Under the pieces are notes generated by a model. That model ran no database searches and was not told the DNA's origin. It saw only the letters and a list, made by a program, of their open reading frames with translations. From contig OY730476.1 in the NCBI GenBank assembly GCA_963422735.1, positions 992,001 through 1,056,000 of the forward strand: 64,000 nt of DNA, given 5' to 3'. Positions 6,772 through 48,483 of this stretch are shown here, piece after piece. Numbering within the stretch: the stretch's first letter is position 1; each line of letters opens with the position of its first letter. The stretch comes from Candidatus Latescibacterota bacterium (GTDB lineage: Bacteria; Latescibacterota; UBA2968; UBA8231). The position numbers and the translations under genes were made by a program.

Positions 6772-7380
6772 CTAACCGATTCCAAGTATCTTTGCGACAA
6801 ATTGGGTTCGTGCATAGAAAGCCCGGCTTGTGCTGCCATGCCCGGCTCCCTTGGTTCTCGGCTGAACCAGCACACCCATTTTGCCGGTTAGATACTCAAA
6901 TCCCTTGGTTGCAATGCAACTTCTCACTTCTTCATAATCTCTCTTTATTTGCTCGTAATCAGCCTCGTTATTGAGATCAAAAGCCGATACGTTCATCAAA
7001 ATAGATCGGTTCTCGTCCTTAGACTCGAATAACCTAGCGCAAATCACTACTCTTTTCAGTTTTGTGAGCAAGTGGCTTTGTTCAAAGGGGGTACGTTTGA
7101 CGTTGATCGGGTCGATCATGGTAATAGCCATAGTCTCCTTAACCCTGATGCTGCCATTAGCAAGTTTTTTCAATGGAACAATTTTTAGTTCCCATGATCC
7201 GAAGTTAGGTGACTACGCCGAATTGATGGGAAGCCCCAAGTACCTTTCAAGCAGATGACCTGCCCACCCTTTGTTTTTCTTGTCACCTCTCCAAATGCTC
7301 ACTTTATGTTGAGCGGCGAGTAAAACCAAATCCTGTCCCTTTAGCAATTTCAGCTTGCTGATTGCAGTTTCCCGTTCCAT
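6772..7380 (-). pseudogene. MutH/Sau3AI family restriction endonuclease with an in-frame TAG
   Basis: ATG 7380: MERETAISKLK...NKGWAGHLLERYLGLPINSA*SPNFGSWELKIVPLKK...KETMAITMI...QPRTKGAGHGSTSRAFYART. TAG at 7213-7215 (codon 56). Confidence 0.85.
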
Positions 7381-7389
7381 TGAATCTCC

Positions 7390-8283
7390 TTACGCAAAAT
7401 TTAGGGACGATTGCCGGTTATCTATCGAGTAGATCAAACGTTCTATGGATAGATCGATAAACTCAGATTCGAGTTCTGTCCCCACGAATCTTCGTCGGAG
7501 GTTCACAGCGGCTACGCCGGTGGTTGAACTACCAGAAAAAGGATCGAAGATCAAGTCTCCTGCGTTTGTCGATGCCATAACTATCCTCTCTATGAGCGTA
7601 ATAGGCTTTTGAGTAGGGTGTTTGCCAAATTTTTTTTCTTCGCTATTAGGAGGCCTAAAAGACCATACCGACTTCATTTGTTTTCCATGGTTTAATTTCC
7701 TCATCTCGGCATAGTTAAAACAGTGCTTTGATTTTTCATTTTTAGCGGCCCAGATAATGGTTTCCGTTGCGTGAGTAAAATAGCGGCAAGACAAATTCGG
7801 CGGGGGATTGGGCTTTTCCCATGTAATATCGTTGAGAATCTTCATTCCCATCTGTTGCATGGCATAACCCACAGAGTGAATGACATGTTGGGTTCCAGAC
7901 ACCCAGATCGTTCCGTCGGGTTTCAATACTCTTTGACACCTCGATAACCAAGCGGTATTGAACTCGTGATTTATTTCTGGGCCTTTGGATTGGTCCCACT
8001 TTCCCTTATCGACCTTCACCATTTTTCCAGCGTGGCAGGTAATCCCTCCATTGGAAAGAAAATATGGAGGGTCTGCAAATATCATATCGAATTTGCCCTC
8101 CGGGTATTTGCCGATGAACATATCCAAAAACTCAAGACAATTAGCCCGATATAGGCAGATACCGAATTCATTATTGCAGAATACGCATTGGTTCGGTGAG
8201 TGTTCAGAACTCTCCATGACCAGCAAAGGCATAAGGGGGCTTTCTGGCGATTGCTCATAACTAGGCCCTTGCTTGTATTTCAT
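7390..8283 (-). CDS. Beta-class N6/N4 DNA methyltransferase (DpnIIB/MboIB-like, probably GATC)
   Basis: FADPPYFLS precedes HPTQKP and FDPFSGSSTT; visibly lower GC than the flanks. Confidence 0.92.
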   Translation of the reverse strand: MKYKQGPSYEQSPESPLMPLLVMESSEHSPNQCVFCNNEFGICLYRANCLEFLDMFIGKYPEGKFDMIFADPPYFLSNGGITCHAGKMVKVDKGKWDQSKGPEINHEFNTAWLSRCQRVLKPDGTIWVSGTQHVIHSVGYAMQQMGMKILNDITWEKPNPPPNLSCRYFTHATETIIWAAKNEKSKHCFNYAEMRKLNHGKQMKSVWSFRPPNSEEKKFGKHPTQKPITLIERIVMASTNAGDLIFDPFSGSSTTGVAAVNLRRRFVGTELESEFIDLSIERLIYSIDNRQSSLNFA

Positions 8284-11548: not shown

Positions 11549-14500
11549 TCAGTTGGTCAACTCGGTGAATACGGCTGAGAATACGCACCGCGTCTGCTGC
11601 ATGCGCGCCTCTACTTCGTCTTGGAAGGCCGCTACGTCTTCGCTGCCGAGGGCGCGGCTCAATATCTCCAACTCCCGGCCGGTCGGCAGGGCGTCGCTGG
11701 CTCTTTCGCTGGCGAGCCGCATGCCCTTTTCCACGGCTCGCAGATACTCGTACGCATCGAGAAGAAAGCGGCCCTGCTCCGGATCTAAACAACCCCGCTC
11801 GACGAGTAACTGCAGCGCATGTCTCGTGCTACCTACGCGCAAGTGCCGGTCTCGATAGCCCCACTTGAGCACGAGTACCTGCGCCACAAACTCGATATCG
11901 ACGATGCCGCCCGGGCCGCGCTTGATGTTGATGCGCGCCCGGCGCTTGCCCTGCGGCTCCATTCGCTGGCGCATCTCCTGCATCTGCGCGCCCAAGGCTT
12001 CGTCCACTTCCCGGCTGTAAACGAAGCGCTCAATCGCCCGCAAGACCCGCGCACCAAACTCGGCATCGCCGGCCACTTGGCGAGCGCGACTCAGCGCCAT
12101 CCGCTCCCAAGTGGCCGCCCGCTGCGCCAAGTAGCGGCGGTAGCCGACCAGCGAGATGGCCATGGGGGCACCGGCCCCTTCGGGTCGGAGCCGCGCATCC
12201 ACCGAGTACAGCCCCTGCTCGGCTAACAGGGCGATCAAGCGCTGGCTAAGCTCGATGAAAAACACGCTATTCGGTACGCCGCGGCGCGTCTTGCCGTCGC
12301 TTTCGTACACGAAAAACAAATCCAGATCCGAGCCAAAATCCACCTCGCGGCCCCCAAATTTGCCAGCGGCCAACACGGCGAACCGCACGTCGCGACCCTG
12401 TCGGTTGCGCGGCTTGCCCCACCGCCGTACCAACGGACGCCAAGCCAGCCGATAAACCGCTTGCAACACCTCGTCGCCCAACTCCGTCAGCCGCAGGAAA
12501 GTCTCCTCCTCGGTCGCCAACCCCATCAGGTCGTCGGCCCCAATCCGCAGAAGGGATCGATTCTGCATCCGCGCAACGGCGTGCAAATCACCGCGCACTG
12601 GACCAGGCTCCAAGCCCCGGCCAGCTTGGTCGATTAAGCTGTCGAGCAGGGCCGGATCGCGGCGCAAAAGATCGGCGAGAAAGCGGCTTGCCCCACAGAT
12701 GGCAATGATCAAGGTGCGGAAGCCTGCGTACTCTTGTAATAAGGAGTACAAAGCACCCGGCGCACCATACGCCTCGACTAGTTGAGTGAAGCGCAAAAGC
12801 CCTTGATCCGGGTCGGGAGCCGCAGCCAGCGAATTCAGCAATTCCGGCAACAGGGCCTCAAAGCGTGCGCCCCCCCCACTCAACAGCAGGCCCATGGCCG
12901 CCAGCCGATGCAAGCGACGGTGTGCAGCCGCCCCATCGACAAAGCCCCGCGCCGCCAAGTCGGCTTTTGCCACCTCGCTGCCGCTTTCAACTTCCAAGAG
13001 CCACGTCGGGGAGCGCGGAGCCGCCGCGTCGCTGTAAAACAGCGCGGCAAACAGCCGGCGCACCCGCAGCCGATGCCCGGCCAGCTCACCGGCAAAGGCC
13101 CGTGCATCTCCATAGCCCATAATCAGGGCCAAGGCTCGCGCGGCCCGCGCCTCTTCCGGGATGGCGTAGTCGGGACGGCCAGAGGCGATTTGTAGTAGGT
13201 TTTCAACGCGGCGAAAAAACTCGTACGCGCTCTTTAGCGCACTGGCCTCTGCCACAGTCAATGCCGTCACCGCGGCCAAGCAGTCGATGGCGGCCAGCGT
13301 GTTGTGGATGCGCGCTTGGGGATGGATGCCCCCGTAGAGTAGCTGTAGGCACTGGACGATGAATTCGATGTCGCGGATCCCACCGGCTTGCAACTTGATG
13401 TTGTTCTCGCCGCGGGGACGCTCGCGGATGCTCGCCTCAATCCGCTCCTTGATGCGGCGGATTTCCTCGTGCGGTGCCGAGTGGAAGTGGGCCGGGTAGA
13501 TAAAGGGCCGGAGCATGGCCGCGTATTGTCCCCCCAACGTCGGCGATCCCGCCACGCGCCGGGCCTTGATGAGCATCTGCCGCTCCCACAGTTCCCCACG
13601 CGTCTCGTAATAAGCCCAACTCGCACGCAACGAGTGGGTCAAGGTACCGCTCGCGCCTTCGGGGCGCAGCCGCATATCGACTCGGTAGAAAAACCCATCC
13701 TTGGTCGCCGCGGTCAGCACCTGGACTAGGCGCTGGCCCAAGCGGCGGAAGAACTCGCTGTTCGCCAGCGGCGTCCCCCCCCGTTCGGGCTGGGTCTCGC
13801 CTTCGCCGTCCCACACGAAAATCAGGTCAATGTCCGAGCTATAATTTAACTCCTGCCCTCCATATTTGCCCAAACCGACGACGAGGAAGCGCGCCGGGCG
13901 GCCGCGTTCGTCTAGCGGCTGCCCGTGGTCATGCCACAAGTCGTACTGGCATGTTTCGAGGGCTAACTCGACCACCATGTCGGCTAGGTCAGCTAGCTCT
14001 TTCCCTATTTGTGCGACCGGCTTAGTGCCGAGGATCTCGGCGGCACCAATGCGCAAAATTTCGCGCCGATGCACCCGCCGCAATACCTCCAAACGCTCCT
14101 CGGACTCGGAGGTATGACCGAGCTCGGTGCGCAAAATCTGCCGTAGGACACTCCGCTTTAGCGGCTCGACTAAATGCGGGGTCTCGGCCAACAGCCACAG
14201 CAGGAACTCGGAATTGCACACCAAGATGTCGGCGAGAAAGGTGCTGTGACTCACGATCTGCACCAAGCGCTGGCACAGGATGGAGTCGGCCTCCAAGTGA
14301 GATAAAAGCCCCCGCGGACTGCCGTACGCCATGGCCAAACGCGCCAACTGCCGCAGCCCCTCGTCCGGCCGTCCCGTCGCGGCTAGTTCGGCCAACGCGA
14401 GGGCTGGCAGCGGCGCGGATTGCGGCGGGCTGCCCATCCGGTCCAAGGTCTCTAGAGCCTGGACCGGATGGGCAAAGCCCAATTGCTCTAGTGGATCCAG

Positions 14501-14557
14501 GGCTTTGGCCGCGTCGGCAGTGAGGGCGCAACGGGCCAGTTCCAATGCGGTGGGCAC
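11549..14557 (-). CDS. glnE: Bifunctional glutamine synthetase adenylyltransferase/adenylyl-removing enzyme
   Basis: Two nucleotidyltransferase domains (GKYGGQELNYSSDIDL; GKFGGREVDFGSDLDL), each followed by a DxRLRPEG motif; start set at GTG just after glnB. Confidence 0.93.
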   Translation of the reverse strand: MPTALELARCALTADAAKALDPLEQLGFAHPVQALETLDRMGSPPQSAPLPALALAELAATGRPDEGLRQLARLAMAYGSPRGLLSHLEADSILCQRLVQIVSHSTFLADILVCNSEFLLWLLAETPHLVEPLKRSVLRQILRTELGHTSESEERLEVLRRVHRREILRIGAAEILGTKPVAQIGKELADLADMVVELALETCQYDLWHDHGQPLDERGRPARFLVVGLGKYGGQELNYSSDIDLIFVWDGEGETQPERGGTPLANSEFFRRLGQRLVQVLTAATKDGFFYRVDMRLRPEGASGTLTHSLRASWAYYETRGELWERQMLIKARRVAGSPTLGGQYAAMLRPFIYPAHFHSAPHEEIRRIKERIEASIRERPRGENNIKLQAGGIRDIEFIVQCLQLLYGGIHPQARIHNTLAAIDCLAAVTALTVAEASALKSAYEFFRRVENLLQIASGRPDYAIPEEARAARALALIMGYGDARAFAGELAGHRLRVRRLFAALFYSDAAAPRSPTWLLEVESGSEVAKADLAARGFVDGAAAHRRLHRLAAMGLLLSGGGARFEALLPELLNSLAAAPDPDQGLLRFTQLVEAYGAPGALYSLLQEYAGFRTLIIAICGASRFLADLLRRDPALLDSLIDQAGRGLEPGPVRGDLHAVARMQNRSLLRIGADDLMGLATEEETFLRLTELGDEVLQAVYRLAWRPLVRRWGKPRNRQGRDVRFAVLAAGKFGGREVDFGSDLDLFFVYESDGKTRRGVPNSVFFIELSQRLIALLAEQGLYSVDARLRPEGAGAPMAISLVGYRRYLAQRAATWERMALSRARQVAGDAEFGARVLRAIERFVYSREVDEALGAQMQEMRQRMEPQGKRRARINIKRGPGGIVDIEFVAQVLVLKWGYRDRHLRVGSTRHALQLLVERGCLDPEQGRFLLDAYEYLRAVEKGMRLASERASDALPTGRELEILSRALGSEDVAAFQDEVEARMQQTRCVFSAVFTELTN

Positions 14558-14567
14558 TGCCGGGGCT

Positions 14568-14906
14568 TCAGAGGGCGTTTTCGCCGGTTTCGCCGGTGCG
14601 GATGCGGATAGCCTCAACCAAGTTGGAGACGAAGATCTTACCATCGCCGACCTCGCCGGTGGCAGCCGACTGCAAAATCGCCTCCACCGCTTCGTCGAGT
14701 AGGCCATCGCCAACGGCCAATTCAATGCGAATTTTGGGCATGAAGTCGAGCTGGTACTCGGCACCGCGGTAGATTTCGCTGTGGCCGCGCTGGCGACCGC
14801 AGCCGCGCACCTCGCTGACGGACATCCCGACGAGGCCAATCGCGGCCAAGGAGCTTTTGACCTCATCGAGTTTGAAGGGCTTGATAAAGGCCACGATGTT
14901 TTTCAC
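14568..14906 (-). CDS. glnB: Nitrogen regulatory protein P-II
   Basis: 112 aa; IKPFKLDEV, YRGAEY (Tyr51) and GDGKIFV. Confidence 0.95.
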   Translation of the reverse strand: MKNIVAFIKPFKLDEVKSSLAAIGLVGMSVSEVRGCGRQRGHSEIYRGAEYQLDFMPKIRIELAVGDGLLDEAVEAILQSAATGEVGDGKIFVSNLVEAIRIRTGETGENAL

Positions 14907-38633: not shown

Positions 38634-38709
38634 GGGGCTGTAGCTCAGCTGGGAGAGCGCGGGCTTTGCAAGCCTGAGGTCGTCGGTTCGATCCCGATCA
38701 GCTCCACCA
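38634..38709 (+). tRNA. tRNA-Ala(TGC)
   Basis: GGGGCTG...CAGCTCC-ACCA cloverleaf, anticodon loop TTTGCAA, G3:U70 pair, GTTCGA T-loop. Confidence 0.97.
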
Positions 38710-40785: not shown

Positions 40786-41330
40786 TTGCTCTTCAGCCAA
40801 GGAGAAATGCTGTGCCGAGGAGCGATCCCGAGCTCTGGAACCGACGCACGAGCGCGGCGACTTATATGGACCAACCTGCGCTGGACCCTCACCCACATCT
40901 GGCCGGACAGGCGGGCACTGGCCTTGGGCATCGTCGCCGTGCAAACTCTGTCGGTGCGGGGGGCGCTGGCTTTGAACAGGCCCTGCCGTGGCTTATAGCA
41001 TTCGGGCTCGTGCTTCTGCTCACAAGAGATGTGCAGTGGAAGGTGCGGTACGCGCTCCACCTACGGCTGAACACGCGCTCGGCCATCGCTTGCTGGCCAA
41101 GGCGTCGAGGCTGCAGATCGTCTTCTTTGAGGTAAGCGCGTTCCACGATCAGCTAGAACGCGCCAAGCCCCCGGGGCACGCGATCAATCGGTTCTACTTC
41201 GCGGCCATGCACGGATTTGAGGTCGGCATCCAAGCCCTCTCCATCGCGGCTATGTTCGCCTTAGTCTCTCCGTGGCTCTCTCTGACTCTTCCAATTGTAC
41301 TGGTACCGCAGATTCGACTGGCAGTTGTTG
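40786..41330 (+). pseudogene. ABC transporter transmembrane-domain fragment
   Basis: Frame-hopping fragments including LLAKASRLQIVFFEVSAFHDQLERA and LVSPWLSL; no ATPase domain; ends approximate. Confidence 0.5.
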
Positions 41331-41727
41331 CCCTGGCAATCCTTGGAAGAGAGGAAATCCCGATCAGGTAGGCTCTCGAATTCGTCTAGCGATATGTCCA
41401 TGTTCTCAACTTCGCTCTGAAAGAGACTCAGGATGACCACGCGAGCTACCCGGTCTTCCCGTTTTCGAGATCGTCTAGTTCCTGCTTTAACTCGAAGACC
41501 GCATCTTTGATCTCCTTCTGCCGCCGTGAGTGGAGTTCGGCTCTCTGCCGCCCTAGACCGCCCAGTGTTCCCAGAGATTCTCGGGGACTTCTCGCTTGAT
41601 CTTCTCCGAGCAACCGCGAAAAAGACGATTAAAAGGCCGTATCTTGTATGATTACGCTGCTACAAAAAGAAAGGCCGCATAGTTCGCATCTCCGATAAGT
41701 GGAATAGCGCGAAGCACCCCCCAATAT

Positions 41728-41765
41728 AAGTCATAAGTCGCTACCGCAGACTTATTGACTTTTTT
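41728..41765 (+). promoter_or_regulatory. Inverted repeat (operator or terminator) overlapping a TTGACT -35 box
   Basis: AAGTCATAAGTC-N9-GACTTATTGACTT followed by a T run. Confidence 0.45.
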
Positions 41766-41822
41766 CAAACATCCACGTTCTTTGATTTTGTTCCCCTTTG
41801 ACCAACAGGAAAAGGTCCTACT

Positions 41823-42095
41823 ATGACGACGACTAACTCTAAAAAACGCAAACTTTTCAAACTTTTAGCCCCGCAGGCGGAAAGCGTTTACTTGGCCGCC
41901 TCCTTCAACGATTGGGATCCACAGGCCCGCCCGCTCAAAAAAGACACCCAAGGCCTGTGGAAAACTTCGGTCACGTTACCTTTGGGCAAGCACGAATACC
42001 GCTTTGTGGTCGATGGCGAATGGCGCGATGACCCGCAGTGCCGGGAGCACCACCCCAATCCCTTCGGCACCACCAACTGCATTTTGCACGCCTGA
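41823..42095 (+). CDS. Glycogen-binding (CBM48/AMPK-beta, early-set) domain protein
   Basis: APQAESVYLAASFNDW...GKHEYRFVVDGEW...NPFGTTN. Confidence 0.9.
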   Translation: MTTTNSKKRKLFKLLAPQAESVYLAASFNDWDPQARPLKKDTQGLWKTSVTLPLGKHEYRFVVDGEWRDDPQCREHHPNPFGTTNCILHA

Positions 42096-42126
42096 TCTCG
42101 CCGCGCCTTTAGGCGTACGCCCACCG

Positions 42127-42148
42127 CCTCACGACGGAAACGGCACGG
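42127..42148 (-). repeat. Second displaced copy of the 3' end of gene 44330..46306
   Basis: cctcacgacggaaacggcacgg versus 44328-44349 cctcacgacgggaacggcacgg (21/22), encoding VPFPS*. Confidence 0.75.
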
Positions 42149-42169
42149 CTTGCGCAATAGTGGCGAAGC

Positions 42170-43000
42170 TTATTGGCCGTCGCAAGGCCGGTATTCGCCG
42201 CGGGCGTTCCAGCCGGGATACTGCGATTCCAAGGCATCGAGCGTCTGGCGGGTGTAGTAGGGATGGTCGGGCGGCGGGAAGCGGAAGAGCTGGCGATCGG
42301 CGGCAGTGAGGCCGGCGATAAACTCGCAAAAGTGCGGGTCGCGCCCCACCTGGGTGTAGTGCTCGACGCCTTCCCAATAGTGGTCGGCGCGGCCATAGGC
42401 GAATTTCCAGATATAGCGCTGGCCGTCGGCGCGCCGATAGTCGCTGGCGGCGTGCCAGGAGTAGTTGTGGAAGATGGCTACCGAGCCGCCAGGGGCGACC
42501 ATCGGCTCGGCTTTAGCCGGGTCCTGGTGCTGGCCGTCGCCATCGGCGACGAAGAGGGTTGGGGCCTGATCCCCTTCGACGTCTTCGAGGCAGAACCAGA
42601 AGTTGAGCTGGCTGTGACGACGGTCGGATGTAGTGGGCGGCAGCAGCGAATTGTTGCAATTGTCGATGTGGAACGGCCCACCCTTGCGGCCCGGATAGGA
42701 GACCAAACCCAGTCCGGGCCGGTAGTGGATTTGGTCGGTGCCGAGCCAGTGTCGGGCGAAGGCGATGGCTTCGCGGTCGACGATGGCGCGGTTGAGGCAT
42801 TGTTCGGGATAGGGGAAATAGCAGGAGTCCAGGCGAGCGTCGGGCGGGCCGTCCGCGACTTCGTCCCAAGGTTTGAGGAGGAGGCGGAGGGCGGCGGCCA
42901 TGGCGGCGCGTTGGGCTTCGGGGAGGTAGTTGTGGATGATGACAAAGCCGCGTGTGGCAAGTGTTTTGAATACTTCGTCGTTTAGTTTTTGCTCCTGCAT
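42170..43000 (-). CDS. Phytanoyl-CoA dioxygenase (PhyH) family Fe/2OG oxygenase
   Basis: GFVIIHNYL, HxD (FHIDN) and distal WHAA. Confidence 0.88.
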   Translation of the reverse strand: MQEQKLNDEVFKTLATRGFVIIHNYLPEAQRAAMAAALRLLLKPWDEVADGPPDARLDSCYFPYPEQCLNRAIVDREAIAFARHWLGTDQIHYRPGLGLVSYPGRKGGPFHIDNCNNSLLPPTTSDRRHSQLNFWFCLEDVEGDQAPTLFVADGDGQHQDPAKAEPMVAPGGSVAIFHNYSWHAASDYRRADGQRYIWKFAYGRADHYWEGVEHYTQVGRDPHFCEFIAGLTAADRQLFRFPPPDHPYYTRQTLDALESQYPGWNARGEYRPCDGQ

Positions 43001-43011
43001 GATGGGTTCCT

Positions 43012-43326
43012 TTAGGCGACATGTTTCTGGATGCCGACGACGAGTGCGATGCTCAGGGCCGCGATCAGCGCGACACCGACGAGCGTGATGATTAAGGTCT
43101 TGCCCATAAACAAATAGATCCCCAAGCCCATCAGGACGGTCACCACTCCCATAAGGAAGAGCATCAGCCCCACCCAGTGGGCCAATGCGTCCTTGTCGGC
43201 GACCCGGTTCGGGTCGAGACCGGAGATCAGGCCGATGCGTTTCTTAACTCCTATCAGATAGGCGATGGCATAGAGCGGCAGGGCGGAGAGCAGCATGACG
43301 AGAAAGATAAATAGGTCTGAGTCCAT
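43012..43326 (-). CDS. Small three-TM membrane protein (DUF3784-like)
   Basis: Hydrophobic segments, LISG...DK pattern; AAAGGAG RBS. Confidence 0.7.
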   Translation of the reverse strand: MDSDLFIFLVMLLSALPLYAIAYLIGVKKRIGLISGLDPNRVADKDALAHWVGLMLFLMGVVTVLMGLGIYLFMGKTLIITLVGVALIAALSIALVVGIQKHVA

Positions 43327-43355
43327 AGAAAGCTCCTTTCATGGGCTGGGAGTTG

Positions 43356-43430
43356 TCACGCCGGAAACGGCACGGGAAGGCATAGCTTGGCGTATTGTAG
43401 AAGCGGTCTAGCCCGGCTCCGACGCGAATC
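43356..43430 (-). repeat. First displaced copy of the 3' end of gene 44330..46306
   Basis: 75 nt aligning to 44330-44426 with 9 mismatches (6 synonymous) and a 22-nt deletion between TTCCCGTG direct repeats. Confidence 0.9.
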
Positions 43431-44270
43431 AATCTAGAGCACGGCAAGACCATTGTCCTTGAAGCCACTCCTCCAGTTCAGCAATCTCCTCTTCCGTCAA
43501 GTTCAAGCTGGCTGCTTGAGCGCGATCAGTTGTAGATCTGATCAGGGCTGCTCGAATATCGTCCGCGTTTGGTCCCGGGTTTACACTCCGTGCAGCACCG
43601 CCGAATAGCGCTGCACGGAGAATCACTCCAATCGCTTGTCGTCCTACTTGTATGCCCTCCCTCTTAAGCTCATCCCGGGTCCAAGCCGTAGCTTGGGTCA
43701 AGCTGAAATCATGAGTGTTCCCATAGTGTGCGAGCATTTCAATGGTTGCCTTCCACTTAGCAGGGCTAAGCAGGGGTAAGTCGGTGATTTGAAAAATTTG
43801 CGTGATAAGCTCCGGCGTGTCTTCTTCGCCTCCCGGTTCCGAGTGAATGTCGGGATTCCACACATAGTGATTCTTTGTGCGGAGATCGGGCATCATCGAA
43901 ACTAATCTGCCAAGCGAGCCGGTGTTAAACCATCGGCTTCGATCTATGGTATCCCCGAATTCGATCTGAATTCGGATACCGAAAAGCCTGATTTGGTGAG
44001 ATTTGGCCGGAATCTCGAAAAGTAAACCCTACCACTATCGTTCCCCTCCTCGGTGTCCTCAACCCATCCCACCGGGTTCATATACGCCCGTCGTACTAAG
44101 AAATCTCTCCTAGCGTTAGGTGAAAGCTTCCAGGAGGCAAGAGCATCGAGCCACTTGCTAGGTTCCCGCGCTAATGTGTAAGCCGCTCAACGGTCCAGTT
44201 CCAGCATGCCACTGAAAAGATTGTCGAAGTCTAAGAAGAGTGCTGTTCTGATACATTCCATGCTGGTCAT
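43429..44270 (-). pseudogene. NYN (PIN-like) domain protein pseudogene
   Basis: ATG 44270: RTALFLDFDNLFSG...DR*AA...RRDFLVRRAYMNPVGW...YFSRFRPNLTKSGF, then deletion/frameshift into the C-terminal ORF 43429..43896; visibly lower GC. Confidence 0.75.
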
Positions 44271-44329
44271 CTCCAGTTATCTATCTATTTGCTACCCCTC
44301 TGGCCGCCAAGAGGATACAACGATTAACC

Positions 44330-46306
44330 TCACGACGGGAACGGCACGGGAATCCCATCGCCGTGCCACGGGAAGGCGTAGCTCGGTGTATTGCAGAAAC
44401 GATCTAGCCCGACTCCGACGCGAATCGCCGTTGACGGCGGCAGTTCCACCGAGAAGTACTTCCCTTCTACAGCAGCTACAACCTCGCCATCCCTCCCTGC
44501 GGCGCGGTATTTGAGCTGCGTGAAGCGGTGCTCACCAAAGGCACCGGCCTGTACAATGAGGCGGCGCGTCTCGTGCCGCGACGTGTTGACGAGCTGAATG
44601 CCGACCCCAGCCGGTCCCAGTTCATCTACCAAGGCGGCCACATCTAAGGGCAGCCCCGGACGCAGGAGATCGGCGTCGAAGTAGCGCACCGTAGCGCGCA
44701 GCAGACCGCCGTTATAGACCGACTGCGGCGCCCCCAGCGTCACTTGGGTCAGCCCCTTGGTCAACACCGGCTGCGACGGGAGCCGATTGGTAGCGATGAT
44801 CTCCAGAGGACTGCGCTCCACGTCGCGCATGGCCTCGTAGGTCTCTAGGGCCTGCTGGTACTCCGCCTGCAGAATCTGCTCCGGCCAGCTCGGGTTCTTG
44901 CCGTCGTAGTACTGGAAGCGGGCAAATTCGGTATTGCCCCAGTTTTTCTCGCCCAAGACCGTGCCTACATCATTCCAGTCTCGCTCCACGTCGCCTTCGC
45001 GCACCGAGGTGATGAGCTCGTAGTCCTCCCGGGCCATAGAGGCGTGGTACAGGTGCATGATGTCCTGACCCCTAAGTGGGGTGGGTTCCAGCCAGTAGCC
45101 CCGCATCTCAATGCCGTCGCTTACGTGTAGTCCCGGCGCTGGATTCCAGTCCCAGCCATCCGGCCCGTAGCGCACTGGCACGAGGAACTGCCCATCCTCC
45201 CGTTTCCTGCCGTTATCGATTTGCAGCTTGATTTGCGAGCGCAAAAAGTCGAGGTAGCCGCTGTCGCCGGTGAGCAGTTGGGCGCATTCGACTGCGATGT
45301 TGATACCGTGGAACATGATGTTGTAGCCTTGGTAGTGGTTCCAGCCGTATTGGCCTCCCCACCACGCGCCTTCGCGTCCCCCACCGATGACGCCTTTGGC
45401 ATCGACATTGTCCGGGCAAATACCGCCGTTTTTCTCGGTGCGCTCCATCCACGCCTCCGTGTAGTCGAGGACCCACTGTTTGTACTTGCTATCGCCCGTG
45501 TACAGATAGGTATTGGTCACCAGCGCGGTAGCCGCTAAGCTGTTGGGCGTGTCGCACTGCAAGACGAGCCGGTCGAACAGATCGACGATCTGCTTGCGCC
45601 GCGCTGGATTTTCAAACCAGCGGGTCTCTAAGTTTTTGACGATGGGATACAGGCTGGCGCGCACTCCGTAGTAGTTGGCCTGTCCGCCCAAGCCGCGCCC
45701 GGCCAGCAGCATGGTGTTGGCGTATTCTGCGTCTGCGTGGAGCTTGGGTCCTTGGCTCGAATGGAAGGGCGAGCGCAGGATGCGGTATTCGGGATCCCAG
45801 TTGGGGGCTTGGGGATCCTCACCGATAAACAGGGCCGCAAAGCTCCGCGCCCGCCGCATGTTTTCCGATACCGTGGGATCGGCCACCCCAAAGTCGTAAA
45901 AGGCCATATTGCCCTCGCCCAAGTGATGCCACTCCATGGCTTGTTCGAGGTTCCAGAATTCGTTGTGGATGGAAGGGCGGAAAACTTTCACGTGATCGTT
46001 GTAGCGCGTGCGATGATTAATGCGATCATCGCTGATGCGGGTGACCGCGTTCCAATTGCGGAAGTGGAAATCGAGCAAATCGTCGGCCGCGCCAATCGCG
46101 TAGAACAGGCCGAAGTTGTACATCTGTTCGTAGAGATCATCCACATCCTCGGCCAACAAGGTGCCGCCGCCGCGCTCAAAGTACTGCCGAGCGAACAGGC
46201 GGCCCGACTCCTCCATCAGTGCGATCAAATTCCGCTCCATTAAGGCCCACGCCGGCGGGGCCGCAACCTCGGTCGCCTCAATCCTAGTCATACTATTTGC
46301 TACCAT
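44330..46306 (-). CDS. Uncharacterised 'PPAW-ER' family protein (658 aa)
   Basis: Intact ORF with GGAGGT RBS; motifs PPAWALMER, DDLYE, EWHHLGEG, WWGGQYGW, RPGLPLDVAALV and QAGAFGEH. Confidence 0.88.
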   Translation of the reverse strand: MVANSMTRIEATEVAAPPAWALMERNLIALMEESGRLFARQYFERGGGTLLAEDVDDLYEQMYNFGLFYAIGAADDLLDFHFRNWNAVTRISDDRINHRTRYNDHVKVFRPSIHNEFWNLEQAMEWHHLGEGNMAFYDFGVADPTVSENMRRARSFAALFIGEDPQAPNWDPEYRILRSPFHSSQGPKLHADAEYANTMLLAGRGLGGQANYYGVRASLYPIVKNLETRWFENPARRKQIVDLFDRLVLQCDTPNSLAATALVTNTYLYTGDSKYKQWVLDYTEAWMERTEKNGGICPDNVDAKGVIGGGREGAWWGGQYGWNHYQGYNIMFHGINIAVECAQLLTGDSGYLDFLRSQIKLQIDNGRKREDGQFLVPVRYGPDGWDWNPAPGLHVSDGIEMRGYWLEPTPLRGQDIMHLYHASMAREDYELITSVREGDVERDWNDVGTVLGEKNWGNTEFARFQYYDGKNPSWPEQILQAEYQQALETYEAMRDVERSPLEIIATNRLPSQPVLTKGLTQVTLGAPQSVYNGGLLRATVRYFDADLLRPGLPLDVAALVDELGPAGVGIQLVNTSRHETRRLIVQAGAFGEHRFTQLKYRAAGRDGEVVAAVEGKYFSVELPPSTAIRVGVGLDRFCNTPSYAFPWHGDGIPVPFPS

Positions 46307-46447
46307 CGCCTACTACCTCCTGTGCGCGAGAAAGGGTCGGACGTAATTCTAGGCGGCACTACATGCGCGGGCAAGCGGCACACTTTCAGCCGATGGCGCG
46401 TTGGTCTGCTTGGCTGCTCCCGACGCATCCTTTACCTTAAAAACCCC

Positions 46448-47233
46448 ATGAACAGTAAAGACTATCTACACGCCCTCTTCGGCTGCGAGGGCCGCAAAGC
46501 CATCGTCACGGGGGCCTCCAGCGGCCTAGGTGCCGAAATGGCCCGCGTCCTCGTCTCGGCGGGTGCTGACGTCCTCGCCATCGCCCGCCGCCAAGAGCGC
46601 CTCGAAGCACTGGCCAACGAATTGCAAGATCGCGCCGGGACCATCCACGCACACGCGGCCGACCTCAGCGACAACGCCGCCATCGCCGCCCTGCCCGAGC
46701 AAGTGTGCGAGCGACTCGGCGGCTGCGATATCTTGGTCGCCAATGCCGGCACAGCCACCCGCGTCCGCCTCGAAGATATGGCCGAGCAAGACTTTGCCGC
46801 GGTCGTCGATCTCAACCTCAAAGCCCAATGGCTGCTCGCCAAAGCCTGCTTTCCCCTGCTCTGTCAATCCGATGCCGGTCGCATCGTCAATATCGCCTCC
46901 ATCTACGGCTTGGGAGCCTCGGTAATCAACGGCCTGAGTGCCTACACAGTCAGCAAGCACGGACTCGTAGGGTTGACGCGCTCGCAGGCAGTGGAATGGA
47001 GCAGACACGGCATCACTGCAAACGCCATCGCCCCCAGCTATTTTCCCACCGAATTGACCGAAACCGCCCTCGACAACGAGAAGATGAGCACCCGCCTGCA
47101 CACCTTTACGCCGCAGGGCCGCTTTGGTCAGCCCGCAGAGTTGGCCACTACCCTGCTTTTTTTGTGCTCAAAGGACAGTGGCTACGTCAACGGGACCGTC
47201 GTACCGGTGGACGGCGGCTGGACAGCGTGGTGA
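46448..47233 (+). CDS. SDR family oxidoreductase
   Basis: TGASSGLG, NAG, YTVSK and VDGG. Confidence 0.92.
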   Translation: MNSKDYLHALFGCEGRKAIVTGASSGLGAEMARVLVSAGADVLAIARRQERLEALANELQDRAGTIHAHAADLSDNAAIAALPEQVCERLGGCDILVANAGTATRVRLEDMAEQDFAAVVDLNLKAQWLLAKACFPLLCQSDAGRIVNIASIYGLGASVINGLSAYTVSKHGLVGLTRSQAVEWSRHGITANAIAPSYFPTELTETALDNEKMSTRLHTFTPQGRFGQPAELATTLLFLCSKDSGYVNGTVVPVDGGWTAW

Positions 47234-47315
47234 TAGTAGCCAGTGTTGAGTGAATAGTGCCCCGCCGCCTCTAGGGTCGGGAGCGGACGGGAACTAACCA
47301 CTGAAAATCGGCACT
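47234..47315. repeat. Degenerate heptamer-periodic intergenic element
   Basis: TAGTAGC-CAGTGTT-GAGTGAA-TAGTG ... AACTAAC-CACTGAA; same architecture as 3349-3419. Confidence 0.5.
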
Positions 47316-47700
47316 ATGAAAAAGCGAATCCTCGGCCGCACGGGCCTAGCCGTGAGCGAGCTGTCGCTCGGCGGGCTTTTTGTCTCGTCCCTTGGTGCGG
47401 CCTTTGAGCAGAGCAAGCAGGCCGTGCGCCGCGCCCTCGAATTGGGGTTAATTACATCGACGCCGCGCCGACCTATTTCGATAGCGAAGAGGTCTTGGGT
47501 AAGGCATTCGAAGGCGTGGAAACGCCCCTTTACCTTTCGACTAAGATCGGAGGTCGCCTAACCCCCTTCCTGCCACAGGGCCCCGCCTGCCTGCGGCGTT
47601 CGGTGGAGGAAAGCCTCAAGCGCGACCGCGTCGATATCCCGATGGTCCACGAGCCAGACCGGCCGCGGATGTACGATTGGGGTTCCCTTCCGACCTTGCG
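47316..47700 (+). pseudogene. Aldo/keto reductase pseudogene
   Basis: MKKRILGRTGLAVSELSLGG; one base missing in GGGG near 47444 (restoring it gives NYIDAAPTY...SEEVLG); truncated after VHEPD. Confidence 0.8.
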
Positions 47701-47766
47701 AAGACCCCTTCGTCCTACCGCTAGCCGGGCTTACTCTGGGCTGGGACAGATCCGTTAGCAGTCTTC

Positions 47767-48483
47767 TTAGGCTGGCGGCGCTTCCAGAAAAACGCGTACC
47801 CCCATATCGGCATAGCGCGACCGACTCTCAGCCGTGCCATTGCGGAAACAGACCGCGGTATCCGTGCCCTGCAAGGACTCGACCACGTGGCGCACACAGT
47901 CATCGACGCTTTTGAGATGGGGATGTCCCCGGTGATTCAGGTCCATTTGCAGGTCGGTAGGGCCAAAGGAGAGGCAATCGACCCCGGGCCGCGCCAAGTT
48001 GAATGCACTAGTCGCGGCCGCCACGGATTCGACTTGCAGCCACAGCACCCCGTACTGGTTCCACCAATCCGCATACGCCTGGGGGCCGCTACTCGCGTCG
48101 CCGACGCGGGCACTGCCGCCGTGGCTGCGCACCCCTTGCGGCAAGTAGTAAAAATTAGCCACGGCCTCTTCAGCAGTCGCTACGGCCTCTACTTGGGGTA
48201 CTTCGATCCCCGAGGGCCCCAGGTCCAAGTAGTTGCCGATCAGGTAGGTGTGGCGAGTGTGCTTGATGCGGAAGTGCAGCGGTAGGTCGAACTCCCCGAC
48301 CATGCCCGACAACGCGACCAAGCGATCTTCGCTATAGGGCGAGTGCTGGCTATCGACAAAGACAAAATCGCACGCGCCCAACTCGGCGATTCGCTTGAAT
48401 GCATCGCGCTCGATATCGCCGCGGATGCCAAACCCCACCACCTGTTCGCCCCGCTTGATCTCCTGCTTCAAATTCGCTGCCAT
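47767..48483 (-). CDS. HpcH/HpaI aldolase family protein
   Basis: DFVFVDSQH, LQVES and FGPTDL. Confidence 0.88.
   Translation of the reverse strand: MAANLKQEIKRGEQVVGFGIRGDIERDAFKRIAELGACDFVFVDSQHSPYSEDRLVALSGMVGEFDLPLHFRIKHTRHTYLIGNYLDLGPSGIEVPQVEAVATAEEAVANFYYLPQGVRSHGGSARVGDASSGPQAYADWWNQYGVLWLQVESVAAATSAFNLARPGVDCLSFGPTDLQMDLNHRGHPHLKSVDDCVRHVVESLQGTDTAVCFRNGTAESRSRYADMGVRVFLEAPPA

Follow-up and report, generated by a model that had tools for sequence, protein, structure and literature searches.

The locus described here raises the question of how partial copies of one gene's 3' end came to lie in succession behind that gene, with unrelated genes between them. An initial annotation had read the arrangement as a stacked array, in which incoming DNA repeatedly replaced the end of the gene and pushed the older tails and their cargo downstream, and had suspected an undescribed cassette-accumulating hotspot. 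We analyzed a 64,000-nt window of contig OY730476.1, and all coordinates are positions within it (Table 1). The host belongs to a lineage of uncultured MAGs, within a sponge-type Latescibacterota clade. The window was compared closely with the loci of 17 relatives (92-96% protein identity, ~90% DNA identity), and displaced tail copies, here called orphans, were scored across these 18 genomes with nhmmer. A wider comparison used 80 fetched loci, i.e., the 17 close relatives and 63 others. Recombinase and transposase families were searched for in 61 of 61 window ORFs and, in the 17 relatives, in 65 of 108 candidate ORFs >1.2 kb past the gene end.

Table 1. Features of the array and its borders, in window coordinates.
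Feature	Position	Strand	Basis
Convergent CBM48 / AMPK1_CBM gene, 90 aa	41823..42095	+	Domain match
Tail copy 3, eroded remains of an older ~45-nt orphan	42127..42148	-	Sequence comparison and relatives
Cassette 2b, PhyH-like dioxygenase, 276 aa	42170..43000	-	Pfam match just below cut-off
Cassette 2a, DUF3784-like small membrane protein, 104 aa	43012..43326	-	Pfam match just below cut-off
Tail copy 2, 75-nt orphan (final 97 nt of the gene, with 22 nt deleted)	43356..43430	-	nhmmer, E = 2e-17
Cassette 1, ~899 nt, NYN-domain pseudogene	43431..44329	-	Homologue comparison
Tail copy 1, working 3' end of the anchor gene	44330..44426	-	Sequence comparison
Anchor gene, 658 aa, uncharacterised conserved family	44330..46306	-	ORF and translation

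Tail copies and cargo in the window

The anchor protein has 465 homologues at E ≤ 0.001 (7999 candidates), and all homologues listed for it carry the precomputed database label PF26099. It had no match in local Pfam, NCBIfam, or PDB sequences, no toxin or Rhs/YD domain was found with local Pfam and NCBIfam, and its AlphaFold model (mean pLDDT 59.9) matched no PDB fold at E ≤ 0.001. Conservation within the protein is highest at the C-terminus, which ends in PSYAFPWHGDGIPVPF, a sequence nearly invariant across phyla in the C-termini of 121 stored proteins, and PSYAFPWHGDxIPVPF is almost unvarying among the homologues listed.

At the DNA level, the conserved tail holds the palindrome CCGTGgCACGG, a 7-bp hairpin, and two TTCCCGTG repeats, and in copy 1 these 8-mers lie 22 nt apart and an inverted repeat reads GGCACGG-N13-CCGTGCC. 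Copy 2 is identical to 44330-44426 at 66 of 75 positions when a 22-nt gap is allowed between the two 8-mers (local alignment gave a 60-nt block at 88% and a 22-nt block), and protein-level similarity may reach ~43447. Copy 3 matches 44328-44349 at 21 of 22 positions. The recurrence of the tail, the deletion between microrepeats, and the common orientation reported in the initial annotation were all borne out, all three copies being direct repeats that read in the minus-strand coding sense. A 22-mer with ≤3 mismatches matched the window three times vs. 0 in 100 shuffles, and a 23-mer matched twice, again vs. 0 in 100 shuffles. When the last 120 nt of each of the 61 non-overlapping window ORFs were compared with the DNA ≤6 kb downstream, only the anchor gene had copies at E < 1e-3.

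The cargo genes also proved to be as first described. Cassette 1 has a GC content of 0.51 vs. about 0.58-0.65 in its surroundings, and its NYN gene is broken: residues 1-95 (43977-44261) are interrupted by an in-frame stop at codon 25 (44187-44189), residues 237-412 lie at 43456-43983, and ~141 codons have been deleted. PF01936 was identified in two full-length homologues, 412 and 433 aa long. No NYN gene was found in the 80 fetched loci, tblastn of P0122 and P0123 matching the window alone. Since this cassette has a lower GC content and is absent from all relatives, foreign DNA must have entered the locus here. The DUF3784 and PhyH matches are real, though just under the Pfam cut-offs (27.6 bits vs. 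28.1, and 21.8 bits vs. 22).

Gene order behind the anchor gene in relatives

Results showed 10 gene orders among the 18 genomes, so that the cargo is variable, and the site behind the anchor gene is a hypervariable insertion spot. The order gene, DUF3784, PhyH, orphan, CBM48 occurs in six genomes, the same order lacking DUF3784 in three, and an AAA_14-DUF4143 cassette replaces most of DUF3784 in two; the window and six relatives (L001, L011, L014, L015, L016, and L021) each have an order of their own. Orphan tails occur in 15 of the 18 genomes, 10 at nhmmer E ≤ 1e-3 and five more at the same position with E of 0.05-0.32, and none was found by nhmmer in L011, L014, and L016. In the relatives, the DUF3784 gene lies behind the anchor in seven, is displaced in two, is reduced to a 3' scrap in three, and is absent from five. 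The PhyH gene is present in 15 of the 17 (L014 keeps an end scrap alone and L016 has no match) and absent from the other 63 loci. In most relatives the variable stretch is bounded on its far side by the CBM48 gene, which stays in place. Across genomes the cargo is mostly defence-like (NYN, HEPN, AAA_14-DUF4143, AbiEii-like) along with IS elements; among 12 cargo ORFs from these loci, one, in L015, encodes an IS5-type transposase. Each compact cassette contains one to three genes, which mostly run in the same direction as the anchor, and the cargo gene ends ~10-25 nt from the orphan.

New cargo always adjoins the working gene, which always has an intact tail, and in 15 of the 18 genomes a partial older tail lies downstream, still attached to the gene's former follower. 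The orphans are followed by DUF3784 and PhyH or by the convergent CBM48 gene, and the sequence behind each orphan is that found after the working gene in relatives, as is the spacer after copy 2. The window differs from L002-type genomes by exactly the NYN cargo plus one tail, leaving a precise empty site (WIN 12877-14568 aligns straight onto the relatives' gene end), which homologous recombination between tails would also predict. Across relatives the anchor gene is ~90% identical up to the stop codon and then diverges completely within a few bases, and the left junctions of roughly five different new cassettes fall at about -6 to +4 nt of that codon. As for the few bases of microhomology expected at a non-homologous junction, the window may have a GATT overlap there, although placing the join would take a donor sequence.

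All orphans share their right end, the stop codon, and keep the terminal ~20 nt, while their left ends, measured from that codon, lie at ~8 nt (L016), 43-45 nt (L015 and the older orphan), 57-62 nt (L001), ~102 nt (L021), or 97-118 nt (window). In the older and L015 orphans, the left end coincides with the first TTCCCGTG; overall, left ends differ by >100 nt and have no common motif, and the orphans, which by eye are truncated coding tails, represent truncations of one homologous sequence. Beside them, tblastn matched only anchor residues 622-646, 640-657, or 625-646 and no other gene body. The AAA cassette sits at tail-less junctions, which lie behind DUF3784 in L015 and directly past the PhyH stop in both L021 and L014, and no tail was found between DUF3784 and PhyH. 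The same tail-copy pattern occurs at other genes too: in L016, two copies of an SDR gene's tail, one of 34 nt (100% identical) and one of 20 nt, flank a tandemly duplicated small-ORF cassette, the ~396-nt duplicated unit consisting of the 34-nt tail and this cassette, and in L015 a scrap of the DUF3784 tail lies behind the AAA cassette.

Origin and age of the orphan tails

Codon comparison of copy 2 with the present tail confirmed that six of the nine differences are synonymous and three non-synonymous. Seven of the nine differing states are present in the working tails of at least 6 of the 17 relatives, and the remaining two, both non-synonymous, are rare (0/17 and 1/17). Since most differences are synonymous and most states recur in working genes, copy 2 looks like a former coding allele of the anchor gene, in line with the initial annotation's view that the longer tail was once the coding end of another allele. 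It matches L005 at 71 of 75 positions and L021 at 70 of 75, as compared to 66 of 75 for the window's own tail. Nor does a different paralogue fit better, copy 2 matching orthologous tails at 62-71 of 69-75 aligned bases and in-genome paralogues of 63% identity at 40-41 of ~55. Allelic recombination that reached the working gene at a later time could also have made the present tail differ from copy 2. Such recombination is frequent, since identity of the window gene to each relative ranges from 83 to 99% across 150-nt windows.

The older ~45-nt orphan, after PhyH and before the convergent CBM48 gene, occupies the same position in 12 of the 17 close relatives, L021 carrying a 75-nt version there, and the NYN pseudogene and copy 2 occur only in the window. 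Judged by this distribution, the distal tail is older and the proximal one younger, which fits older tails being pushed downstream. The older orphan retains its hairpin in different species, and 4 of 11 sequences show one compensatory pair, a hint that the element serves a function and is not simply a scar. The window and L021 orphans have a 22-nt deletion in common, start ~5-20 nt apart, and adjoin different cargo; this could mean either that the deletion recurs at a hotspot or that the two orphans come from one mobile module.

These observations suggest an order of events. The clade ancestor would have gained PhyH, with or without DUF3784, leaving the ~45-nt orphan, and the window lineage would later have gained the NYN gene, leaving a 97-nt orphan. 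The latter may then have lost 22 nt between the 8-nt direct repeats flanking the hairpin and taken two non-synonymous hits.

Explanations of the array and closest known systems

The tail copies are probably scars of recombination, left in an integrase-less hotspot for insertions that lies immediately behind the conserved, uncharacterised anchor gene, the tails having been displaced repeatedly by homology-anchored illegitimate recombination or by homologous recombination from tail to tail. The conserved gene would provide the homologous anchor for DNA incoming from relatives, and the far end of that DNA would join illegitimately inside the resident tail; indeed, homology is found on the anchor side of the insert only, as in homology-facilitated illegitimate recombination. 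Afterwards, the tails could act as short homologies, by which tail-to-tail recombination would move, duplicate, or delete cassettes. Since a donor arrangement with NYN directly behind the gene was found in none of the 80 loci, we only infer that tail and cargo were imported as one piece, and the clustering of junctions around the stop codon is not predicted by random illegitimate joining in the ~27-nt spacer. The initial annotation's account of repeated 3' end replacement holds for the array and its age order, and a joint arrival of the present tail with the NYN gene is conjectural: the 31 window-private substitutions in the anchor gene occur throughout its length, only one of them within the final 300 nt, and no imported tract is visible from them at its 3' end.

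As initially noted, no integrase is visible in the window, none of the 61 ORFs matching a recombinase or transposase family, and the 65 relatives' ORFs scanned (of 108) yielded no integrase and a single IS1595 transposase. Orphan lengths of ~8 to ~118 nt argue against a fixed att site. Nothing in the scanned ORFs or in the scatter of orphan left ends supports a dedicated cassette-capture mechanism, and this is probably not a fixed-site, integrase-driven system. If the conserved tail, with its hairpin and the two TTCCCGTG, were a true attachment site, served by a recombinase encoded elsewhere that inserts compact cassettes after the stop, as in integron arrays or where integrase-less cis-mobilisable elements accrete behind a gene, this would account for the close packing of cassettes, the clustered left junctions, the retained terminal ~20 nt, the orphans that begin at the first TTCCCGTG, the identical deletion between 8-mers in two orphans, and the constant proximal position of new cassettes. 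However, given the lack of an integrase in the scanned ORFs, the motif-less left ends, the AAA cassette at tail-less junctions in three genomes, the lack of a tail between DUF3784 and PhyH, and the lack of any Rfam match at E ≤ 1 in 41000-48000, we consider such a site unlikely. We think it quite improbable that the conserved tail is the recombination site itself, into which an enzyme acting in trans or hairpin-driven template switching inserts defence-gene cassettes precisely at the stop. If it were, the locus would be an integron-like array, integrase-less or served in trans, inside a gene's 3' end and common to the whole sponge-symbiont clade, and the orphan hairpins would be kept as working recombination or terminator sites.

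An origin in place is also unlikely, i.e., tandem duplication or template switching over the gene end, followed by replacement of the cargo copy and overwriting of the working tail by allelic recombination. The fresh tandem unit at the SDR gene in L016, the frequency of allelic recombination, and the lack of a visible imported tract would suit it, but the window's two cassettes are unrelated (NYN vs. DUF3784 and PhyH), the NYN cassette shows that foreign DNA came in, and duplication alone brings no new genes. Full-length paralogues of the anchor stand two to four in a row in Dehalococcoidia and Poribacteria, and tandem members of the family are present at many other loci (e.g., L036, L038, L041, and L044); the tails might be the last remains of paralogues that decayed in place. 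This origin is highly improbable and is already contradicted by the closer match of copy 2 to orthologous tails, by the missing gene body beside every orphan, and by the sequence that follows the orphans.

The locus has several parallels among known systems. Integrative and integrase-less, cis-mobilisable elements accrete at the 3' end of fda in Streptococcus thermophilus (ICESt elements), where the repeats are fixed-length att sites made by a known tyrosine integrase. The present locus likewise has stacked elements and direct repeats from a gene 3' end, but its repeats differ greatly in length, and the scanned ORFs contain no integrase. Integron arrays consist of compact cassettes, the newest nearest the fixed end and each followed by a repeat, as here; however, they adjoin IntI and attI and have attC hairpins with inverted R''/L'' and L'/R' cores, whereas here no IntI was found in the scanned ORFs and the repeats are, by eye, shortened copies of the anchor's coding end. 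In the hybrid mitochondrial atp6 of Allomyces, a foreign 3' end has displaced the resident one, which lies beside a mobile endonuclease ORF; there, too, the incoming element supplies a replacement 3' end and the old end stays downstream as a pseudo-fragment. That process is driven by the insert's homing endonuclease, and none is evident here, though the NYN and HEPN cargo is nuclease-like.

Rhs and T6SS arrays offer further parallels. Passages of Jackson et al. (2009; PMC2935791) describe 'C-terminal displacement' and orphan tip arrays in Rhs genes and propose homologous recombination via a circular intermediate, without a dedicated integrase. As in those passages, a working gene is followed by 3' fragments in the same orientation, each with a conserved piece, and the newest end is at the gene with older ends downstream. 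Unlike Rhs, the anchor is no polymorphic toxin and its C-terminus is conserved rather than a variable tip, the orphans, short conserved tails of 8-118 nt, contain no variable domain, and in place of toxin tips with immunity genes the cargo comprises unrelated genes of a defence-like or metabolic type. In Rhs, CDI, and T6SS orphan arrays, a cognate immunity gene follows each orphan; no toxin-immunity pairing is evident behind the orphans here. For Vibrio cholerae T6SS effector-immunity arrays, sections of Kirchberger et al. (2017; PMC5361080) describe sequential displacement by means of a conserved upstream anchor and an illegitimate join at the other end (HFIR), with finished arrays spreading by ordinary homologous recombination, and compare them with integron cassette arrays. 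These sections resemble our locus in that the older module, including the effector 3' end, is displaced downstream without an integrase. They attribute retention to selection for immunity genes, and no such benefit is evident for the orphan tail here, whose anchor is a single non-secretion gene.

Thus, of the initial suggestion of an undescribed cassette hotspot, the variable hotspot stands but not the undescribed class. Since the same type of array has been explained in print for Rhs and T6SS, the locus is a variant of a known pattern, here anchored on a non-toxin gene.

Tail copies and cargo behind the 658-aa gene

The 3' end (tail) of the 658-aa anchor gene recurs downstream as two detached copies, or orphans. 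The proximal orphan repeats the anchor's last 97 nt as a 60-nt block (88% identity) plus a 22-nt block, giving 66/75 matches once a 22-nt gap is placed between two TTCCCGTG 8-mers, and the distal orphan matches the anchor's last 20 nt and two bases past the stop codon at 21 of 22 positions. With up to 3 mismatches allowed, the 22-mer matched three times in the window and never in 100 shuffles; a 23-mer from the tail matched twice, vs. no match in 100 shuffles. When the last 120 nt of each of 61 non-overlapping window ORFs were compared with up to 6 kb of downstream sequence (E < 1e-3), only the anchor had such copies. The tail copies are far above chance and specific to the anchor gene, and coordinates, match counts and shuffles all agree with the array of three tail copies described in the initial annotation. 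The synonymous bias claimed there also held on recount, the nine differences between the proximal orphan and the working tail being six synonymous and three non-synonymous. An Rfam scan of positions 41000-48000 (E ≤ 1) gave no match, no terminator-like site was found at any tail, and the sole tRNA of the window, a tRNA-Ala, lies 3.4 kb away from the array.

Cassette 1, next to the working tail, is an NYN-domain pseudogene, of which residues 1-95 (interrupted by an in-frame stop at codon 25) and 237-412 remain. Pfam was silent on these pieces alone even at E ≤ 10, so the NYN assignment rests on two full-length homologues (412 and 433 aa), both of which contain PF01936. Cassette 2 holds a DUF3784-like and a PhyH-like gene, each slightly below the Pfam cut-off, and a convergent CBM48 gene ends the variable stretch in the window. 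None of the 61 window ORFs scanned (61/61) matched a recombinase or transposase family, in keeping with the earlier remark that no integrase is visible in the window. The rest of the window is core chromosome (dcw cluster, ribosomal proteins and similar). A MutH-like endonuclease fragment (133 aa) in the window adjoins an N6/N4 DNA methylase, probably a small restriction-modification pair.

Features of the window and of the related loci (prefix L, locus of a relative; no prefix, window)
Feature	Position	Strand	Remark
Anchor ORF, 658 aa	44330-46306	minus	ORF call and translation
Working tail	44330-44426		anchor's last 97 nt
Cassette 1, NYN-domain pseudogene	43431-44329		GC 0.51; via full-length homologues
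Proximal orphan	43356-43430
Distal orphan	42127-42148
tRNA-Ala	38634-38709
SDR gene	46322-47233	plus
Variable spot after SDR	47234-47767; SDR stop regions of L002-L021
MutH-like fragment and methylase	6772-8283
Old orphan after PhyH, examples	L002:13161-13244; L003:14168-14258
AAA unit	L003:12016-13179; L007:6730-7893; L001:3724-4887; L021:12858-14021; L015:14619-15782; L014:12027-13190; L016:15468-16937
Duplicated cassette after SDR	L016:3300-4710		SDR tail copies between: 34 nt (100% identical) and 20 nt
Defence-type genes past CBM48	L013:13692-20211; L006:19254-19613; L005:14043-15586; L007:9953-11497; L011:13198-14777
Frameshifted anchor gene	L021:10001-11978
Multiple anchor-family paralogues	L031, L036, L038, L041, L042, L044, L048, L051-L059, L062-L064, L071, L072, L075-L077, L080

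The locus in related genomes

Species-representative genomes were scanned with an alignment of 19 anchor homologues, which gave 112 loci with a relative, of which 80 were kept (L001-L080). Seventeen of these (L001-L016 and L021) come from MAGs of Latescibacterota type, of which two carry the label Gemmatimonadetes or Planctomycetota and many are chromosome-level assemblies; their identity to the window is 92-96% in protein and about 90% in DNA, and their flanks are collinear with it. Together with the window, these genomes showed 10 architectures in 18 genomes behind the anchor, and thus the cargo proved variable among relatives, a check that the initial annotation had proposed. PhyH, DUF3784, CBM48 and NYN genes were not found in the other 63 loci.

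Architectures behind the anchor gene in 18 genomes (order from the anchor outward; scrap, 3' remnant of DUF3784 unless stated)
Architecture	Genomes
gene, DUF3784, PhyH, orphan, CBM48	L002, L005, L006, L008, L012, L013
as in the row above but lacking the orphan, then AbiEii-like AAA_21 gene	L011
gene, PhyH, orphan, CBM48	L004, L009, L010
gene (last two codons changed), AAA_14-DUF4143 on opposite strand, scrap, PhyH, orphan, CBM48	L003, L007
gene, HEPN_RiboL-PSP and 77-aa ORF, 57-nt orphan, AAA, scrap, PhyH	L001
gene, PhyH, AAA, 75-nt orphan, CBM48	L021
gene, scrap of PhyH end, AAA, CBM48	L014
gene, 77-aa ORF, 239-aa ORF and IS5-type transposase, 43-nt orphan, DUF3784, AAA, scrap, PhyH	L015
gene, 77-aa pseudogene, ankyrin and 361-aa ORF, about 8 nt of tail, DUF3784...	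L016
tenth architecture	window

A tail profile (nhmmer) detected orphans at E ≤ 1e-3 in 10 of the 18 genomes and at E 0.05-0.32 in five more, where the weakly scoring orphans occupy the same position and are positional homologues by alignment; none was detected in L011, L014 and L016. In the other 63 loci, extra tail matches fall within full-length tandem paralogues; orphan tails hence characterise the locus in this clade. A background scan of 1013 ORFs from those loci gave 61 matches on about 50 genes; by spacing, most resemble tandem paralogues, and the two inspected (L024, L037) were repeats or paralogues. Apparent tail copies at a 396-aa gene of L015 sit within a full-length paralogue and hence are not orphans.

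In genomes of the L002 type, the working tail is followed by a spacer and then directly by DUF3784. Since the same spacer follows the proximal orphan of the window, the window differs by exactly one NYN cassette plus one tail. The orphan after PhyH is common to nearly all relatives, where it measures about 45 nt; by sequence comparison, the 22-nt distal orphan of the window, whose sequence recurs exactly in none of the 80 loci, is its eroded form. Because the one is shared among relatives and the other, with its cassette, occurs only in the window, the distal copy is old and the proximal copy recent and lineage-specific.

Past CBM48, relatives differ in defence-type genes (type I restriction R subunit, AIPR, HigB toxin, and an AbiEii-like AAA_21 gene with a partner ORF), and so the variable region reaches beyond the tail array. 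With genes such as HEPN, NYN, AAA_14-DUF4143, AbiEii-like ATPases, HigB, a type I restriction subunit and AIPR, the cargo and the relatives' wider downstream region mark the neighbourhood as a variable region of defence type that lacks mobility genes.

The AAA unit (about 1.36 kb) consists of one AAA_14+DUF4143 ATPase gene and a palindromic upstream sequence, and occurs in at least four junction contexts within the locus. Its homology extends from its stop codon to about 35-45 nt upstream of the start; it behaves like a mobile gene, yet without flanking repeats. A second variable spot lies directly after the stop codon of the SDR gene, where relatives carry at least five unrelated sequences, each beginning at once behind it. 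The gap of 530 nt found there in the window starts an ORF (MKKRILGRTG...) that matches the first part of the relatives' downstream gene but looks cut short. Short runs of GGCCAGTGG / CCACTGG-like repeats just past the SDR stop in L021, L005 and L016 may be a small repeat element.

Origin of the proximal copy and the joining process

At seven of the nine positions that differ, the base of the proximal orphan occurs in the working tails of at least 6 of the 17 relatives, while its bases at the remaining two, both non-synonymous, are rare (0/17 and 1/17). Identity was 71/75 to L005 and 70/75 to L021, as against 66/75 to the window's own tail. The match to the paralogues that these genomes carry (63% identity) was poorer, at 40-41 of about 55 aligned bases, than that to the orthologous tails, and this rules out a decayed paralogue. 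These comparisons support the view, advanced in the initial annotation for the longer tail, that the proximal orphan was formerly a coding allele of the anchor. Its allelic nature does not prove that the present tail arrived together with the NYN gene. Neither sliding identity nor private-substitution counts revealed a breakpoint that would mark an imported tract in the anchor gene: its 31 substitutions private to the window are evenly spread, a single one lying in the last 300 nt, and identity to each relative is mosaic (83 to 99% in segments of 150 nt). Given this pattern, the tails could also have come to differ through allelic recombination that later affected the working gene.

How cassettes and tails were joined may be read in two ways. 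If the tail were a fixed att site, orphans would be expected to have a constant extent, but their left ends lie at about 8, 43-45, 57-62, about 102 and 97-118 nt from the stop codon; the AAA cassette, moreover, occurs at junctions without a tail, and no tail separates DUF3784 from PhyH. No integrase was found in the window, nor among 65 scanned ORFs (from 108 downstream candidates) of the relatives; the scans of relatives' ORFs gave one IS1595 transposase (among those 65) and, separately, one IS5-type transposase. On the other side, the left junctions of about five cassettes fall within -6 to +4 nt of the stop codon, with a spacer of about 27 nt, and the orphans of the window and L021, which adjoin different cargo and start within about 5-20 nt of each other, have the same 22-nt deletion. 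This deletion sits between 8-nt direct repeats flanking a hairpin, a classic slippage hotspot, and it may thus plausibly have recurred. The old orphan after PhyH and the orphan of L015 both have their left end at the first TTCCCGTG, and the old orphan's hairpin is kept in 11 aligned relatives (7-10 bp). One of its pairs is A-U in five sequences and G-C in four, a compensatory change that may be a single event since the four are closely related; the hairpin could have kept a function (terminator or recombination site, for instance) or be the product of templated mutation within a quasi-palindrome. Taken together, junction clustering, the common deletion, the TTCCCGTG ends and the hairpin keep a site-directed or hairpin-directed process as a minority reading.

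Other features of these loci favour general recombination processes. In L016, the SDR gene is followed by a tandem duplication (100% identity) of a unit made up of a 34-nt tail and a small-ORF cassette, with an older 20-nt SDR orphan behind it, and in L015 a remnant of the DUF3784 tail comes after the AAA insertion. We therefore consider, with moderate confidence, that the mechanism is most likely recombinational rather than a dedicated capture system. Tails would be scars of anchored illegitimate joins, and existing tails would then act as short homologies for cassette excision, duplication and shuffling, a scheme we infer only, since no donor genome was seen. The pattern put forward in the initial annotation is largely right; a dedicated capture system is disfavoured by the scattered orphan ends and the lack of an integrase among the ORFs scanned.

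Similar layouts have been described. One account of Vibrio T6SS arrays invokes homology-facilitated illegitimate recombination with a conserved upstream anchor (PMC5361080), and for Rhs, the model is homologous recombination, via a circular intermediate, of tips joined to core fragments (PMC2935791). The likeness to Rhs, CDI and T6SS orphan arrays is one of pattern; this anchor, however, does not encode a polymorphic toxin and ends in a conserved instead of a variable sequence, and immunity genes are missing after the orphans, which places the locus outside that class. Accreted integrative elements at a gene's 3' end are also similar in layout, but this locus has neither an integrase nor fixed repeats. 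A literature search found no prior description of this gene family or clade, although it was by keyword, which alone does not establish that none is published.

The anchor family and the meaning of the array

The anchor protein is a member of a large, very conserved, unnamed family, with 465 homologues at E ≤ 0.001 among 7999 scored candidates and the precomputed database label PF26099 on all 120 listed homologues. It had no match in local Pfam, NCBIfam or PDB sequences (best PDB E 0.17). An AlphaFold model from 19 sequences was of low confidence (mean pLDDT 59.9, pTM 0.70), and no PDB fold was matched by Foldseek at E ≤ 0.001; the best of its weak matches were mostly (alpha/alpha)-barrel glycosidases (TM ≤ 0.23), so that a predicted glycosidase-like fold is a hint, nothing more. 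The C-terminus (...PSYAFPWHGDxIPVPF) is almost invariant, including in Poribacteria and Dehalococcoidia, and the repeated piece is thus the anchor's most constrained part. Two other window ORFs considered as paralogues (659 and 686 aa) are unrelated, Pfam assigning them to a penicillin-binding protein and a DsbH-like protein. Loci of Dehalococcoidia, of Poribacteria and of some Latescibacterota hold two to four full-length paralogues of the family, arranged consecutively or close together and often adjoined by GHL10-like genes, which hints at a role in glycan metabolism. The anchor gene of L021, a chromosome-level assembly, has a one-base frameshift near codon 266; this may mark a true pseudogene or stem from a homopolymer error in long reads.

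Defence-gene hotspots without a visible mobility gene are common in bacterial genomes, and the route by which new genes enter them is rarely visible. Here, orphan tails record the order of insertion, oldest distal and newest proximal, and with 10 architectures in 18 genomes the clade offers a tractable natural series for studying the joining mechanism. The locus also shows that an ordinary conserved gene can undergo tail displacement, which until now had been described for genes of polymorphic toxins. If the clustering of junctions at the stop codon and the kept hairpin do reflect a site-directed process, uncultured sponge symbionts would possess a cassette system of a new kind.
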